The notes beneath the pieces are model-generated. The model searched no databases. It was not told the DNA's origin and worked only from the letters and a program-made list of their open reading frames with translations. A stretch of 18,934 bases of DNA, from IMG/VR virus record IMGVR_UViG_2675903368_000002, one strand, 5' to 3'. Of this stretch, positions 1,590-14,898 are shown one piece after another (position 1 is the first letter of the stretch; every line of letters begins with the position of its first letter). A program made the position numbers and the translations under genes. The stretch comes from a virus (Duplodnaviria > Heunggongvirae > Uroviricota > Caudoviricetes).

Positions 1590-2098
1590 GAGAACTAAAC
1601 CTCACCAAAGAACAGCATGAGTGGCTGAATGGCTGGCTTGAACTGTGGGGCGCATGGGTTTATTCAGGTCGTTTGGAAAAGCGCATGAGCAGCGTAATAG
1701 CGAAGTTCATGGAGAGCGTAGAGCCGGGAAGAATTATGACAAGGCCAATGTGCAATGATGATGATGGAATGTTGATTTCTCAGGTCGTCGATTCCGTCAT
1801 GTGCATTGACAAGAAAGCCTTTGGCATCCTCCTCAGCTACTACGCTCATGGTTCATCTAAGCGAGCAATTGCATCCTACTATCACGCGACTGCAAAGCCA
1901 CGCAAGATGTGTGGACGTGGTGGCGAGGGATGGAGAAAACCTTCACTGGCAACCTGTAGAAACGAAATTGACGACATCCTGAAAGCGTCATTATTTGTTT
2001 TGTACCAACCAATGCAAAATGCTTTCAAAATGCGTAAACGTGTTGAGAAAGTTAAGCATGTTGCTGTTAAAAACCTTGACATGCAATTAGCCATTTAG
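1580..2098 (+). CDS. Q: Late-gene antiterminator Q (non-lambda allele; phage 21/82-like Q family)
   Basis: 172 aa with an N-terminal WGAW motif and Cys-containing central region typical of the Q-antiterminator family; no resemblance to lambda Q. GTG start at 1580 is preceded by GGGAGAAGG and overlaps the phosphatase stop. Sits immediately upstream of the late promoter and lysis genes. Confidence 0.8.
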
Positions 2099-2106
2099 CC
2101 ATAATT
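2076..2106 (+). promoter_or_regulatory. Candidate late promoter (pR'-like) with expected Q-utilisation site
   Basis: TTGACA at 2076-2081 and CATAAT/ATAATT at 2100-2106 with an 18-19 bp spacer, overlapping the 3' end of Q. Position matches the lambdoid late promoter; the qut element itself is inferred, not identified. Confidence 0.5.
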
Positions 2107-2116
2107 AGAGGGTAAG

Positions 2117-2158
2117 CTGCCGTTAGTGACTCTTAAGTTGCAACGGTGGCTTTTTTTT
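2117..2158 (+). terminator. Intrinsic terminator just downstream of the late promoter (tR'/t82-like)
   Basis: GC-rich hairpin: GCUGCCGUU (2117-2125) pairs with AACGGUGGC (2142-2150), followed by a U8 run at 2151-2158. Lies ~45 nt from the predicted start, the arrangement expected for a terminator read through by Q-modified polymerase. Confidence 0.6.
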
Positions 2159-2163
2159 GTTTG

Positions 2164-2182
2164 CACAACAGGTAAGAGCATT
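2164..2182 (+). repeat. 19-bp direct repeat copy 1 (CACAACAGGTAAGAGCATT)
   Basis: Exact 19-mer immediately after the terminator T-run; an identical copy lies at 2415-2433. Confidence 0.9.
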
Positions 2183-2222
2183 CTCCCTTATGGGGCTTGG
2201 CTTAAATGCACCGAGTGCTCTT

Positions 2223-2246
2223 ATCGTTGTGGCAGCACAACGATAG
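2223..2246 (+). other. Perfect 10-bp inverted repeat (TATCGTTGTG-gcag-CACAACGATA): RNA hairpin or protein-binding palindrome
   Basis: Left arm 2223-2232, 4-nt spacer, right arm 2237-2246, followed by GUUUUCG. Located inside the segment bounded by the 19-bp repeats. Confidence 0.5.
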
Positions 2247-2414
2247 TTTTCGTCAGAGTTGGCGACTTTGCGGTTTTTTAGAAACTGACCACAAAGATAA
2301 ATGCAAACGATGATGTTGTTCTGATGGCGGCGTAATAGCCTGTAAGTCAGCAAGGTCTTCCGACTCCTTGTAAACAAATTCGGCGCACTGGCCCGGTGTG
2401 ATTAATAATGGGCA

Positions 2415-2433
2415 CACAACAGGTAAGAGCATT
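2415..2433 (+). repeat. 19-bp direct repeat copy 2 (CACAACAGGTAAGAGCATT)
   Basis: Exact copy of 2164-2182; directly abuts the hammerhead motif. Confidence 0.9.
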
Positions 2434-2484
2434 GCGCGCCTGACGAGTCCATGAGGGACGAAACGCATTAGCGTCGCGCGGAGT
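2432..2484 (+). ncRNA. Hammerhead self-cleaving ribozyme motif (stem I open, type I topology); predicted cleavage between C2475 and G2476
   Basis: Sequence 2434-2480 reads GCGCGC-CUGACGA-GUCC-AUGAG-GGAC-GAA-ACGC-AUUA-GCGU-C^GCGCG. All invariant core positions are present: C3 U4 G5 A6 N7 G8 A9 at 2440-2446, G12 A13 A14 at 2460-2462, A15.1 (2463) paired to U16.1 (2474), H17 = C2475. Stem II is 4 bp (2447-2450 with 2456-2459) with a 5-nt loop; stem III is 4 bp with an AUUA loop; stem I is 5 bp (2435-2439 with 2476-2480) and continues after a G-G mismatch. On the strand transcribed from the late promoter. Confidence 0.6.
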
Positions 2485-2924
2485 ATCCCCAGCCGGGGAA
2501 TAACTGGATACCAGGGGAGACAACCCTAAGCGCATTTACGAGTGTGTTTAGGGCGTGGGTCGGCAATGACTCCCTGTGCAGCCGACATCTGGCCCGGCAA
2601 CATACAGTGCTCTTTCCGTTGTGCTGAATTAAGCGAATACCGGAAGCAGAACAGGATCACCAAATGCGTACAGGCGTCATCGCCGCCCAGCAACAGCACA
2701 ACCCAAACTGAGCCGTAGCCACTGGCTATCCTGAACTCATCAGTGATAGTTACGCTGCGGCCTTCTATACATGACCTTCGTGAAAGCGGGTGGCAAGAGG
2801 CTGCGCTAACAACCTCCTGCCGTTTTGCCCGTGCATATCGGTCACGAACAAATCTGATTACTAAACACAGTAGCCTGGATTTGTTCTATCAGTAATCGAC
2901 CTTATTCCTAATTAAATAGAGCAA

Positions 2925-2949
2925 ATCCCCTTATTGGGGGTAAGACATG
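2925..2949 (+). promoter_or_regulatory. sdi-like stem-loop and Shine-Dalgarno region controlling the S dual start
   Basis: CCCC (2927-2930) and GGGG(G) (2936-2940) form a hairpin directly upstream of the Met1-Lys2-Met3 dual start of S, as in lambda. Confidence 0.6.
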
Positions 2950-3270
2950 AAGATGCCAGAAAAACATGACCTGTTAGCCGCCATTCTCGCGGCAAAGGAA
3001 CAAGGCATCGGGGCAATCCTTGCGTTTGCAATGGCGTACCTTCGCGGCAGATATAATGGCGGTGCGTTTACAAAAACAGTAATCGACGCAACGATGTGCG
3101 CCATTATCGCCTGGTTCATTCGTGACCTTCTCGACTTCGCCGGACTAAGTAGCAATCTCGCTTATATAACGAGCGTGTTCATCGGCTACATCGGTACTGA
3201 CTCGATTGGTTCGCTTATCAAACGCTTCGCTGCTAAAAAAGCCGGAGTAGAAGATGGTGGAAATCAATAA
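2947..3270 (+). CDS. S: Holin/antiholin S (class I holin, dual-start S107/S105)
   Basis: 107 aa, essentially identical to lambda S as recalled ([20 protein letters not shown]...); three hydrophobic transmembrane segments; MKM dual-start motif. Confidence 0.95.
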
Positions 3271-3730
3271 TCAACGTAAGGCGTTCCTTGATATGCTGGC
3301 GTGGTCAGAGGGAACTGATAACGGACGGCAGAAAACCAGAAATCATGGTTATGACGTCATTGTAGGCGGAGAGCTATTCACTGATTACTCCGATCACCCT
3401 CGCAAACTTGTCACGCTAAATCCGAAACTCAAATCAACAGCCGCCGGACGTTACCAGCTTCTTTCCCGTTGGTGGGATGCCTATCGTAAGCAGCTTGGCT
3501 TGAAAGATTTCTCTCCGAAAAGCCAGGACGCTGTGGCACTGCAGCAGATTAAAGAGCGTGGCGCTTTACCGATGATTGATCGCGGTGATATCCGTCAGGC
3601 TATCGACCGTTGCAGCAATATCTGGGCTTCATTGCCGGGCGCTGGTTATGGTCAGTTCGAGCATAAGGCTGACAGCCTGATTGCAAAATTCAAAGAAGCG
3701 GGTGGAACGGTCAGAGAGATTGAGGTATGA
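3254..3730 (+). CDS. R: Endolysin R (lytic transglycosylase, lambda R-type)
   Basis: 158 aa, near-identical to lambda R as recalled ([35 protein letters not shown]...). Start overlaps the end of S. Confidence 0.95.
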
Positions 3731-5030: not shown

Positions 5031-5387
5031 TGGCAAACGCAAAACTGCGTTATCGGAAAAATCAAAGCATTACGAGAACTGAGCAACGGCTATCCATTAC
5101 AAAGCCCATCTACGGGTGGGCTTGATAATGAAACCGGAATTTATTCTTGGCAACCAGTTACGGCAGTACCACGAAACAACCCAAGCCAGTAAGTGGGGAA
5201 ATAACACTGGCAGCCACTGAAAGATGAACCTCCAGCCTTATGGCAAAAAAGATTCTTTGTGGTGGCGGACTGATGGAAAGACATCGGTTATTGCAGAGAC
5301 CATTCAATGAGTGGTCTCGACAATGGCTTATACCCTACACGGGATAACTTAACTGATATCCCTTTTAACGGATAAACGGAGCCAACA

Positions 5388-12166: not shown

Positions 12167-12355
12167 ATGGCACGAACAATGCTCTATAAGCCGGGCAACA
12201 TGATCACCTGTGGTCAGTTTGCTGTCGATTACATCATTGTTGATGACGAAGAAGTTAAATCTCACCTGAAAAAAGGCTGGGTAAAAACTCCTGAAGAAAC
12301 CGCAACGAAGCATAAAGTGGCTAAGGCGGAAGAAGATGGCGAAAACGAAGGGTGA
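12167..12355 (+). CDS. Hypothetical small protein (62 aa) between coat and gp4-like gene
   Basis: ATG at 12167 with SD GGGAGAAG 5 nt upstream; the listed ORF start at 12131 lies inside the terminator hairpin and is unlikely. No family recognised. Confidence 0.35.
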   Translation: MARTMLYKPGNMITCGQFAVDYIIVDDEEVKSHLKKGWVKTPEETATKHKVAKAEEDGENEG

Positions 12356-12797
12356 TCTCGTTCTTAAGGCTTTACGAAAAGCCGGGCTGTATTCCAATGC
12401 CACGTTGACAGATGCTGACCCTCAGGCAATTGAAGATGCCATTAATGACCTCGAAGACATGATGGCAGCATGGCAGGCTAAAGGTATCGAGCTTGGATAT
12501 CAGTTTGCTGATACAGAAAACGGCATCATGCCGTTACCTGACGATGATTCAGGTATCCCTGCGTGGGCAAATGATGGCGTCGCTTTGAAGCTCGCTGTGC
12601 AAGTGTGCATGGATAACGTCATTCAGCCGTCAGATGCTCTCCTTACCGCTGCTGACAGCGCATATCAGACAATCTGCATCGCTTTAACCAAAATACCACC
12701 ACTTGAGCGGCGAAATGACATGCCTCGCGGTAGTGGTAACAAAAGCGCGTTTACGTGGAATCGGTTTTACATCGAGAAAGATGATCCAAGTACGTGA
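12336..12797 (+). CDS. Head completion / tail accessory factor (P22 gp4-type)
   Basis: 153 aa; N-terminus KTKGDLVLKALRKAGLYSNATLTDADPQAIEDAINDLEDMMAAW resembles P22 gp4 as recalled; gene order matches P22 (5-4-10-26). Confidence 0.8.
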   Translation: MAKTKGDLVLKALRKAGLYSNATLTDADPQAIEDAINDLEDMMAAWQAKGIELGYQFADTENGIMPLPDDDSGIPAWANDGVALKLAVQVCMDNVIQPSDALLTAADSAYQTICIALTKIPPLERRNDMPRGSGNKSAFTWNRFYIEKDDPST

Positions 12798-12806
12798 GGT
12801 GAATAA

Positions 12807-12911
12807 ATGCCGATTCAGCAACTTCCGCTTATGAAAGGTGTCGGCAAAGACTTTCGAAACGCCGACTATATCGACTATCTGCCAGTGAATATGCTGGCAA
12901 TTTTGATATAA
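12807..12911 (+). pseudogene. Orphaned 5' fragment of the gp10-type gene (codons 1-31, then 3 junction codons and a stop)
   Basis: Encodes [34 protein letters not shown]. The first 31 residues parallel the N-terminus of the intact gp10 at 13480 ([35 protein letters not shown]...). Similarity ends exactly where AT-rich inserted DNA begins (12900). Confidence 0.65.
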
Positions 12912-13572
12912 TAAGTACATGAAAAATCGAAACTTTAAGGAGTAGATATGCTTTCTGAGAATGCTAAAGATATACCTGGATTTGAAGGTGTTTATGCCGT
13001 AACAGAAGATGGCAGGGTATATTCTCACTCACGTGTTGTTAAGGCTGCGCATGGCAGCACGCAACTCAGAAAGGGGCGCTGGTTAAAGCCTAAAATCAAT
13101 CAGGGAAGGGTGCTTTATAATATCGGAGCAAAATGGACTTTTGCCCATCGAATCGTTGCAATGACATTCCTGCCAAATCCTGAAAACAAGCCTCAGGTAA
13201 ATCATATTGATGGCAATCCACTCAATAATAACGTCAATAATCTTGAGTGGTGCACTCAAAGCGAAAACATCAAACATGCATACGCCACCGGATTAAAGAA
13301 ACCAATCAAGTTTTTCGGAACCAAGCACCCAAAACACAAGTTGAGTGATGACGATGTTCTTGCAATCAAGTCATCAAAAGAAAGCTTGTCAGTAATTGCG
13401 GCTAAGTACGGGATATCTAAGACCTGGGCAAGTAGGCTAAAGCGTGATGCTAACTGGGTTCATATAAAGGTTGATTCCAATGGCAATACAACAACTACCA
13501 CTAATGAAGGGATTGGGGAAAAGTGCGGTTAATGCTGATTATATAGACCAACTTCCAGTCAATCTTTTAGCT
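12900..13572 (+). mobile_element. Inserted HNH-endonuclease cassette within the 5' end of gp10, carrying a recoded replacement for gp10 codons 1-31
   Basis: Boundaries inferred from the two gp10 N-terminal copies: native-like sequence stops after codon 31 at 12899 and resumes at codon 32 at 13573. The insert comprises an AT-rich leader, the HNH ORF and a codon-diverged copy of gp10 codons 1-31 (13480-13572). Confidence 0.6.
12948..13532 (+). CDS. HNH homing endonuclease (NUMOD4-like N-terminus plus HNH_3-type motif)
   Basis: 194 aa. N-terminal GFEGVYAVTEDGRVYS motif; HNH core HRIVAMTFLPNPENKPQVNHIDGNPLNNNVNNLEWCTQSENIKHA. AT-rich relative to flanking genes; own SD AAGGAG 5 nt upstream of the ATG. 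The 3' end overlaps the restored gp10 start by 53 nt. Confidence 0.8.
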   Translation: MLSENAKDIPGFEGVYAVTEDGRVYSHSRVVKAAHGSTQLRKGRWLKPKINQGRVLYNIGAKWTFAHRIVAMTFLPNPENKPQVNHIDGNPLNNNVNNLEWCTQSENIKHAYATGLKKPIKFFGTKHPKHKLSDDDVLAIKSSKESLSVIAAKYGISKTWASRLKRDANWVHIKVDSNGNTTTTTNEGIGEKCG

Positions 13573-14898
13573 ACGCCCAAGGAGGTGTTGAATTCATCGG
13601 GATATCTTCGCTCATTCCCGGGCATTGCCAAACGTTCTGATGTGAACGGCGTATCGCGAGGCGTCGAGTACAACATGGCGCAGAGTGCTGTTTATCGCGT
13701 GTGTGGTGGCAAGCTGTACAAAGGAGAAAGTGAAGTTGGTGATGTTGCCGGAAGTGGTCGCGTATCAATGGCACATGGTCGGACATCACAGGCGGTAGGC
13801 GTTAATGGTCAACTGGTCGAATACCGCTATGATGGCACGGTTAAAACCGTCTCAAACTGGCCTACGGACAGCGGATTCACGCAGTATGAGTTAGGTTCGG
13901 TCCGTGACATTACGCGTTTACGTGGGCGTTATGCGTGGTCAAAAGACGGTACTGATTCATGGTTTATCACTGACCTTGAAGACGAATCGCATCCTGACCG
14001 CTACAGCGCACAATATCGGGCAGAATCGCAGCCGGACGGTATCATCGGCATCGGAACATGGCGAGATTTCATCGTCTGCTTTGGTTCATCGACGATTGAA
14101 TATTTTTCCCTGACTGGTGCAACCACCGTTGGTGCCGCTTTGTATGTCGCACAGCCATCACTAATGGTGCAAAAAGGAATCGCCGGGACTTACTGCAAAA
14201 CGCCATTCTCTGATTCATATGCGTTCATCAGCAATCCGGCAACAGGTGCGCCGTCTGTGTACATCATCGGCTCCGGTCAGGTGTCACCAATCGCCAGTGC
14301 GAGCATTGAGAAAATCCTCCGCTCCTACACTGCTGATGAACTGGCTGATGGCGTGATGGAATCGTTGCGGTTTGATGCTCATGAGTTGCTGATTATCCAT
14401 CTTCCGCGTCACGTCCTCGTGTACGACGCATCTTCAAGCGCCAATGGTCCGCAATGGTGTGTGCTTAAAACAGGCCTGTATGACGATGTGTACCGCGCTA
14501 TCGACTTCATTTACGAAGGCAATCAGATAACGTGCGGCGATAAGCTGGAATCGGTGACCGGGAAATTGCAGTTCGATATCAGCAGTCAGTATGGGCTTCA
14601 ACAGGAACACCTTCTGTTTACTCCGTTGTTCAAAGCGGATAACGCCAGATGCTTCGATCTGGAGGTGGAATCGTCCACTGGCGTAGCTCAGTACGCCGAC
14701 CGCCTGTTCCTCTCTGCGACCACTGACGGCATAAATTACGGTCGTGAGCAGATGATTGAGCAGAATGAACCGTTCGTTTACGACAAACGCGTTTTGTGGA
14801 AGCGAGTCGGGCGCATCAGGAAAAATGTCGGCTTCAAATTGCGCGTTATCACGAAGTCACCTGTCACTCTGTCTGGCTGCCAGATAAGGATTGAGTAA
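13480..14898 (+). CDS. Tail accessory factor (P22 gp10-type), full length via replacement 5' end
   Basis: 472 aa from ATG 13480 (SD AAGG 9 nt upstream), the same length as P22 gp10 as recalled, and colinear with it along its length as recalled. The listed ORF start at 13471 is TTG and adds 3 codons. Confidence 0.85.

Follow-up and report, generated by a model that had tools for sequence, protein, structure and literature searches.

How can a homing endonuclease gene lie within an essential phage gene and leave that gene able to encode a complete protein? The question is raised by the tail gene gp10 in a stretch of 18,934 nucleotides (nt; hereafter, the window) from a P22-like phage of the Sf6/CUS-3 type (Caudoviricetes; IMG/VR record IMGVR_UViG_2675903368_000002), in which an HNH endonuclease gene separates two different versions of the gp10 5' end. 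The comparative analysis reported here indicates that this is probably a mobile homing-endonuclease cassette that resides inside gp10 with no need for splicing, and that brings with it a replacement for the start of the gene that it interrupts. The locus is composed of the following features (aa, amino acids; bp, base pairs; E, expectation value):

12336–12797, plus strand: gp4 (P22 tail accessory factor; Pfam P22_Tail-4, E = 7e-41), the upstream neighbour, outside the element
12807–12911, plus strand: orphan 5' fragment of the resident gp10, with codons 1–31 (12807–12899) followed by ILI and a stop codon from the insert
12900–13599, plus strand: element-linked block, with the promoter-like motif, the HNH gene and gp10 codons 1–40 of the element's allele
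12900–13572: the insertion proper, 673 bp
12904–12912, plus strand: extended –10 promoter-like motif TGATATAAT (TGnTATAAT) at the left end of the insert, as read from the sequence
12937–12942, plus strand: ribosome-binding site AAGGAG of the HNH gene, 5 nt before its ATG, also a sequence reading
12948–13532, plus strand: HNH homing endonuclease gene, 194 aa, I-HmuI-like (Pfam NUMOD4, E = 1.3e-8; HNH_3, E = 1.9e-10)
13467–13470, plus strand: weak ribosome-binding site AAGG, 9 nt 5' of the functional gp10 start
13480–13572, plus strand: copy 2, that is, codons 1–31 of the element's gp10 allele, with the functional gp10 start
13573–13599, plus strand: diverged codons 32–40, directly 3' of the insertion point, replacing the resident codons 32–40
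13480–14898, plus strand: intact gp10, 472 aa (Pfam Phage_stabilise over positions 1–469, E = 1.4e-296)

Most of this anatomy had been recognized in a sequence-only reading of the window, and its coordinates were verified. The gp10-type frame that opens at 12807 (copy 1) matches the native gp10 start of phage CUS-3 at 91 of 93 nt, diverges after codon 31 and runs into a stop codon at 12909–12911. The HNH gene contains the expected NUMOD4 and HNH_3 domains, and the second start at 13480 lies within its 3' end in a different frame, so that the HNH and gp10 open reading frames (ORFs) overlap by 53 nt. From this start copy 2 retains 24 of the 31 residues of copy 1 and only 59 of its 93 nt (about 63%), with 8 identical codons, 16 synonymous ones and 7 amino-acid changes; the longest in-register run of identity between the two copies is 5 nt. 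The downstream gene is intact, with a full Phage_stabilise match. One element of that reading has to be corrected, namely the seamless join of copy 2 to the resident gene at codon 32: the foreign tract actually reaches codon 40, and the gp10 at 13480–14898 is therefore a hybrid in which codons 1–40 belong to the allele of the element and the remainder to the resident allele. A chance origin of the layout is excluded, since the identical arrangement with identical junctions recurs in dozens of independent records.

Mobility is documented by a natural pair of empty and filled sites. Phage P22 has the empty site, whereas the Salmonella phage UPF_BP1, represented by a complete genome, has the same arrangement as the window with a cassette 99% identical to it. 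UPF_BP1 and P22 are 100% identical in gp4 as well as in the 800 nt of coat region before it, and in the alignment copy 1 of UPF_BP1 is of the P22 type (100%) across gp10 codons 1–31. After the 673-bp insert, UPF_BP1 shows 39 differences from P22 between 13575 and 13746 and is identical to it again over 13747–14087. The co-conversion tract measures 174 nt, lies on the 3' side only and begins exactly at the insertion point, which is, judging from these alignments, the footprint expected of homing into a P22-type allele. The same comparison confirms the proposed insertion point after codon 31.

The cassette is also not the rare footprint imagined by the sequence-only reading, but constitutes a recurrent element family. 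A P22-like gp4-gp10 match was found in 915 of 5426 complete Escherichia coli genomes, and the cassette is present in 18 of these and in 28 IMG/VR contigs, as well as in about 8 of a sample of 120 IMG/VR gp10 loci. The other E. coli loci are uninterrupted, so the idea that all related phages might share the arrangement, with no uninterrupted allele among them, can be dismissed. The junctions are identical in all 32 loci examined and the cassette occurs in very different surroundings, with four gp4 types, whose pairwise identities are below 90%, on one side and nine types of downstream sequence (gp10 3' end with gp26 start) on the other. Among 31 carrier loci, nucleotide diversity is 0.006 within the element (12900–13599), compared with 0.045 in the orphan copy 1 and 0.063 in the next 300 nt of gp10. 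This trough is confined to the block and therefore implies that one young copy has spread into many old backgrounds. Both hallmarks of a homing element, presence or absence at a fixed site and co-conversion with spread into unrelated backgrounds, are thus found at this locus. As for individual genomes, a degraded P22-like prophage remnant in E. coli STEC308 (locus L230, 1.597 Mb), in which gp4, gp26 and the injection genes are truncated, keeps an intact cassette and an intact gp10; locus L148 is an HNH-free relative.

The limits of the foreign block were defined by comparing 27 HNH-carrying with 96 HNH-free gp10 alleles, which revealed 12 fixed differences at 13581–13599. All codons from 34 to 40 are recoded with respect to the native alleles, and in the alignment two serine codons AGC are changed into TCA and TCG. 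From 13620 onward, polymorphisms are common to carriers and non-carriers. On the left, position 12899 is an A in all 31 carriers and in only 13 of 115 non-carriers, and position 12894, five bases from the junction, is already polymorphic in carriers and non-carriers alike. Since the last fixed difference is at 13599 and polymorphism common to both classes returns outside, the block that is always inherited together corresponds to 12900–13599. The duplication thus covers codons 1–31 and the foreign allele codons 1–40, and the only native gp10 sequence missing from cassette-carrying genomes is that of codons 32–40 together with the 31/32 junction. On this basis, the tract 13573–13599 is predicted to form the core of the nuclease target and to determine the immunity of the carrier.

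What kind of sequence is copy 2? It had been taken for a recoded version of the resident start; instead, it behaves as a separate, diverged gp10 5' allele that has diverged together with the HNH gene across five lineages. Its G+C content at third codon positions is 0.375 over codons 1–40, close to that of the nuclease gene (0.40), while the native codons 1–40 have 0.60. An exhaustive search revealed the residues peculiar to copy 2 (GKSA, NIL/NLL and KEVLN) in natural, distant gp10 homologues. None of these homologues is a native allele with the copy-2 N-terminus that could be the donor; in a tblastn search against phages with this N-terminus, UPF_BP1 alone matched at 100% and all others at 84% or less, and a word-indexed protein search with a 61-aa copy-2 query returned short native-type fragments only. 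Because copy 2 groups with the nuclease phylogeny, contains natural residues and has a low third-position G+C content, it is most plausibly a true divergent allele of gp10 that has accompanied the nuclease for a long time. Its substitutions point to coding function: the E. coli lineage and the lineage of locus L235 differ in copy 2 by 15 synonymous and 4 non-synonymous codon changes, as would be expected of a sequence evolving as coding DNA. A ribosome-binding site (GAGG or GGAG) stands in the other lineages at the same place as AAGG in the window, and the gp10 start annotated in RefSeq is that of copy 2. In the GenBank record of UPF_BP1 (KX776161; L001, 2283–3593), the gp10 coding sequence begins at an internal ATG and has 436 aa; this annotation misses the true gp10 start inside the HNH gene and leaves the orphan unannotated. 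As a separate observation on gp10, many homologues are 590–995 aa long and match in two stretches, with 120–500 extra residues near gp10 residue 130 (among them P0027, P0030, P0031 and P0034–P0036; the gp10 proteins of loci L231 and L239 have 597 aa); these extra residues could be a domain insertion or an intein.

The native gp10 start is indeed orphaned, as had been noticed, and RefSeq labels it as a partial pseudogene. It is not, on the other hand, a decaying relic. Among the 31 carriers, its 93 nt contain 22 polymorphic sites, and 21 of these variants also occur, at similar frequencies, in the functional gp10 of 115 non-carriers, the changes being mostly synonymous. Variation typical of a translated gene therefore indicates that orphans derive repeatedly from functional resident alleles. 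By the evidence of these polymorphisms, the orphan is the recipient's own sequence, renewed by recombination, and this renewal has to come from new insertions or from recombination to the left of the junction. We propose that the orphan serves as the left homology arm for homing repair, which would free the element from upstream gp4 modules too diverged to recombine.

The products of decay and loss of the cassette have also been observed. In E. coli ES5 a 1-nt deletion at 13183 truncates the nuclease by frameshift. E. coli AVS0578 (L229, 2441–3859) has neither HNH gene nor orphan, and its gp10 is a hybrid, native in type for approximately the first 20 codons and of the copy-2 type from TATATAGACCAA onward, including the diverged patch; the copy-2-type codons 22–40 are thus used in an ORF that RefSeq annotates as intact. 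Such an allele is what a crossover between copy 1 and copy 2 around the shared GAYTATAT would be expected to yield and, retaining the diverged patch, should be a candidate nuclease-resistant allele. It is the only HNH-less hybrid gp10 among the E. coli genomes, and a search of IMG/VR with the diverged patch for further hybrids, or for an orphan-less ancestor, returned the same 28 cassette contigs and nothing else. Direct-repeat deletions of this kind are rare because in-register runs of identity between the two copies never exceed 5 nt.

The design is older than the young copy found in E. coli and Salmonella phages. Nuclease homologues 83, 82, 72 and 69% identical to that of the window all occupy this same place, between gp4 and gp10, in P22-like phages that are more distantly related, and in these four further lineages (loci L231–L236) the layout of orphan, HNH gene and gp10 is kept, with the gp10 start overlapping the nuclease stop. 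The orphans end after codons 31, 31, about 26 and 30, and resemble the gp10 of the local lineage; copy 2 follows the nuclease instead, reading M[AP]... in one group and MTAIKLPLVRGVGKD or MAIVKLPLARGLGKD in the other. Differences between lineages are mostly synonymous, in the closer pairs, both in copy 2 and in the orphans, and the orphan shares only 53–63% identity with copy 2 of its own lineage. The motif TGnTATAAT, in the form TGATATAAT or TGCTATAAT, is kept at the left end of the insert in all five lineages, while the neighbouring bases vary. It was identified by eye and by its conservation; a sigma-70 scan of the insert, which requires a –35 match, found no standard promoter and did not list the motif at 12904–12912. 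The motif is a perfect extended –10 consensus and might drive expression of the nuclease at times other than late transcription.

The motif is absent from a group of related elements, here called HNH2, that sit in the same late operon and share with the cassette the leader AATCGAAAC..GGAGTAGATATG upstream of the HNH gene. HNH2 is a NUMOD4-HNH gene located between gp10 and gp26, at 2946–3491 in L002 (HZ41) and at 5124–5657 in L085 (E. coli K56-43-un), and it is also present in L092, L112, L237 and L239; three loci contain both elements. It shares the leader AAATCGAAACTnAAGGAGTAGATATG with the HNH gene of the window, and its N-terminus is common to the window nuclease for approximately the first 47 residues in HZ41 and for a shorter stretch in K56-43-un, the C-terminal half being different. 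In the loci compared, the HNH2 elements of HZ41 and K56-43-un are accompanied by alternative, diverged versions of the last ~100 gp10 codons and by no orphan. HNH2 fits the free-standing intergenic type of the Seg and Mob endonucleases, unlike the cassette of the window, which is inside gp10 and associated with a 93-nt duplication. A third related HNH gene, of 172 aa (P0206, listed for over 4000 blocks of the collection), is found at 3001–3519 in loci L241 and L242, from Salmonella prophages; in P22-like prophages of Salmonella its place is between the antiterminator region and the holin. At the same position the window (2098–2947) contains no ORF of at least 90 aa.

The nuclease itself is an HNH homing endonuclease of the I-HmuI-like kind. 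It is built of an N-terminal NUMOD4 beta region, an HNH motif, a C-terminal three-helix DNA-binding region and a disordered tail, the latter encoded over the gp10 start. The HNH_3 match is above the curated Pfam cutoff, and N85, H86, N98, N107 and H110, which align to the motif of I-HmuI, are invariant in 53 homologues. The only sequence match in the PDB is I-HmuI itself (1U3E, E = 1e-8). An AlphaFold model based on the 53 homologues (predicted local distance difference test score, pLDDT, 87.7) has strands at residues 16–65 and helices at 134–165, and its sole Foldseek hit below 0.001 is again 1U3E (E = 1e-6, 189 alignment columns), matched along its full length; the model thus suggests the elongated multi-domain build of I-HmuI. 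Close relatives are lacking in the GTDB species representatives, in which the best match is only 49% identical and comes from unrelated bacteria. Of 32 copies, 31 have an uninterrupted ORF; the polymorphisms are synonymous at 12 places and non-synonymous at 8, three of the latter in the disordered tail. A common variant at 13515, in the frame overlap, is silent in gp10 and alters the HNH tail, and gp10 is therefore the constrained frame in the overlap. Taken at the level of codons, these patterns show that both the nuclease and copy 2 are under purifying selection. I-HmuI-type enzymes place their nick within exon 2, at a distance of 3 nt from the insertion site on its downstream side, and the targets touched by phage homing enzymes with this architecture can be as long as 30 bp (PMC3428280, PMC3943268). 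By analogy, a target made up of the 31/32 junction plus the 27 nt that follow it would agree with this contact length.

These data suggest a scheme for the propagation of the cassette. In a mixed infection, or when a prophage meets an incoming phage, the nuclease would nick or cut an HNH-free gp10 at, or just 3' of, codons 31/32. The break would be repaired from the cassette genome, using codons 1–31 of the recipient as left arm and gp10 from about codon 41 as right arm. The start of the recipient would remain as a 34-codon orphan, and translation of gp10 would move to copy 2. The carrier would be immune, because its 31/32 junction is split and its codons 32–40 are diverged, and the ~63% identity between the copies would keep direct-repeat deletion rare. 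As to its founding, we conjecture that a diverged gp10 was once preceded by a free-standing nuclease gene, whose product cleaved a foreign gp10 in the vicinity of codon 31; from the right-hand end of this break, copying might then have proceeded leftward through the donor gp10 start and the nuclease gene and, with no gp4 homology available, the left end might have been joined illegitimately, producing the duplication of codons 1–31.

Could the layout have arisen and spread in other ways? The most conservative alternative is a passive scar, left by a single illegitimate recombination between two gp10 alleles, one of them with an HNH gene upstream, and later dispersed by ordinary shuffling, the nuclease being inactive, or having another role, and taking no part in the spread. 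P22-like phages are in fact highly mosaic, as shown by the four gp4 types and nine downstream types that surround one and the same block, and the low frequency of the cassette (18/915) would suit a scar. Yet a tenfold diversity trough limited to the block speaks for recent spread into old backgrounds, the nuclease ORF has remained intact with mainly synonymous changes, UPF_BP1 has a conversion tract on one side only, with the insertion point as its exact start, and a neutral scar is unlikely to have lasted in five lineages with HNH genes diverged down to 69% identity; a passive origin is, in our opinion, unlikely. A self-splicing intron, in which 12900–13572 would be removed to join copy 1 to codon 32 and copy 2 would be irrelevant, is suggested by the position of the insert inside a coding sequence and by the frequent intron location of I-HmuI-family HNH genes (PMC3428280), but no support for it emerged. 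No Rfam intron family was found at E ≤ 10 in 12600–13800, and none at the gathering score in the whole window; the parts of the insert outside the HNH ORF amount to just 48 nt (left) and 40 nt (right), not enough to hold a group I core; the boundary bases are A at 12899 and T at 13572, not the usual U and G of group I introns. Moreover, the ATG and the ribosome-binding site of copy 2 are preserved and its substitutions are those of coding DNA, the variant at 13515 spares gp10 and changes the HNH tail, and AVS0578, without any HNH gene, uses copy-2-type codons 22–40 in a gp10 annotated as intact. With no recognizable catalytic core and without the boundary bases of group I, a self-splicing intron of group I or group II was rejected, and this reading is exceedingly improbable.

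The nuclease might alternatively serve as a weapon between phages, or exclusion factor, expressed by the prophage from its own promoter to damage superinfecting HNH-free relatives, with homing as a by-product. The conservation of TGnTATAAT in five lineages and its absence from the sister HNH2 elements of the same late operon would be in line with such a role, as would the many copies found in prophages; on the other side, the motif overlaps stop codons, the role is compatible with homing, and homing alone explains the sweep signature, and we regard the weapon as primary function as very unlikely. Somewhat more credit, though still a doubtful possibility, may be given to a combined reading: a splicing-free equivalent of a mobile intron, equipped with a replacement first exon and a constitutive extended –10 promoter, that would act both as gene drive and as superinfection weapon and in which the orphan would be an obligatory, self-renewing homology arm. 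If this were true, lysogens would attack and convert incoming HNH-free P22-like phages. The homing cassette, which we consider probable, has its own difficulties, and several points weigh against it. No orphan-less ancestor with a free-standing HNH gene was found, the patch search of IMG/VR included, and the founding steps are conjecture; ordinary homologous recombination among very mosaic phages could also move the block; the cassette is uncommon, being found in 2% of the E. coli genomes having the locus. Furthermore, the different left junctions of the lineages (codon 31, 30 and ~26) imply either several founding events or later remodelling, the overlap of the promoter-like motif with stop codons, including that of the orphan, could by itself explain its conservation, and the linkage of 13581–13599 with the HNH gene may reflect a lack of homology for crossovers in this tract and not selection for immunity.

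In the window, the gene order around the cassette is that of a P22-like phage: NinG, a phosphatase, a Q-type antiterminator, the lysis genes and a KilA-N protein are followed by the small and large terminase, portal, scaffold, coat, gp4, gp10 and gp26, and the ORFs 3' of gp26 have counterparts annotated in related loci as DUF2824 and DNA-transfer (injection) proteins. The IMG/VR contig UViG_2695420532_000002 is 100% identical to the window over 13.8 kb. A terminator-like site spans the junction at 12880–12909, with a hairpin TGCCAG..CTGGCA in the native gp10 followed by ATTTTGATAT from the insert; it is probably incidental, because the inverted repeat is absent in lineage L232. P22-like phages package DNA by a headful mechanism, and a role of the nuclease as a terminase-associated packaging factor was also considered and rejected, its gene not adjoining that of the terminase.

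The cassette represents a third way for a homing endonuclease gene to exist inside an essential phage gene, besides residence in an intron or intein and the splitting of the gene into two working pieces. A natural before-and-after pair for its study is available in P22 and UPF_BP1, which are both phages of Salmonella and belong to a classic genetic system. The cassette also accounts for the 'partial gp10 pseudogene' recurrently annotated by RefSeq in prophages and for the truncated gp10 annotation of UPF_BP1, and the 5' sequences of gp10 in carriers, being chimeric, are unsuited to naive phylogenies.

Among known systems, the I-HmuI-type enzymes are the nearest in protein architecture, I-HmuI being the sole solved relative of the window nuclease by both sequence and fold; they bind a long site in the downstream exon, whose counterpart in the window is the diverged tract 3' of the junction. 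Unlike the window element, which has no intron, they are intron-encoded, and the window nuclease is only ~25% identical to I-HmuI. The genetic behaviour is closer to that of SegF, SegG and MobE of T-even phages (PMC2790892; references in PMC8351571), which are free-standing nucleases without intron or intein that show presence/absence polymorphism between related phages. Co-conversion of flanking markers and immunity of the carrier through differences in the target sequence are further points in common, the latter being proposed for the window. The T-even genes are intergenic and cut a neighbouring gene, while the cassette of the window is located inside its target, duplicates the gene start and leaves an orphan. 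In Aeromonas phage Aeh1, the essential gene nrdA is likewise reported to be interrupted by a nuclease gene, mobE, and to be functional unspliced (Friedrich et al. 2007); there both halves are needed and two polypeptides are made, whereas the window encodes one complete gp10 and the orphan merely duplicates a part of it.

The closest parallel comes from the mobile ORF elements (mORFs) of fungal mitochondria, described in atp6 of Allomyces macrogynus and in atp6, atp9, cox2 and nad3 of Glomus, in which the endonuclease ORF arrives with a foreign 3' end for the gene and the native end is left further downstream as an orphan (PMC3630166). Here, too, a nuclease ORF is inserted in a conserved gene, a diverged duplicate of the gene end restores the reading frame and the native end is orphaned; the nucleotide identity of the duplicates is 64–81% in fungal mORFs (PMC3630166) and 63% in the window, and in both cases the native copy matches close relatives while the inserted copy looks foreign. 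We found no description of such an arrangement in P22-like or other phages in the literature searched, an absence that speaks for that set only, and the design behind the replacement gene start is known from fungal mitochondria. The differences are equally clear. Fungal mORFs replace the 3' end, and the window cassette is their mirror image, acting on the 5' end with the orphan upstream; because the 5' end is replaced and there is no in-frame fusion, the window element must supply a start codon and a ribosome-binding site. The fungal nucleases belong to the LAGLIDADG or GIY-YIG families and are mitochondrial, while that of the window is an HNH enzyme of a bacteriophage. By function, the window cassette is a gene-end-replacing mORF; by descent it is not a member of that class, and the phage cassette and its mirror images in fungal mitochondria suggest convergent solutions.

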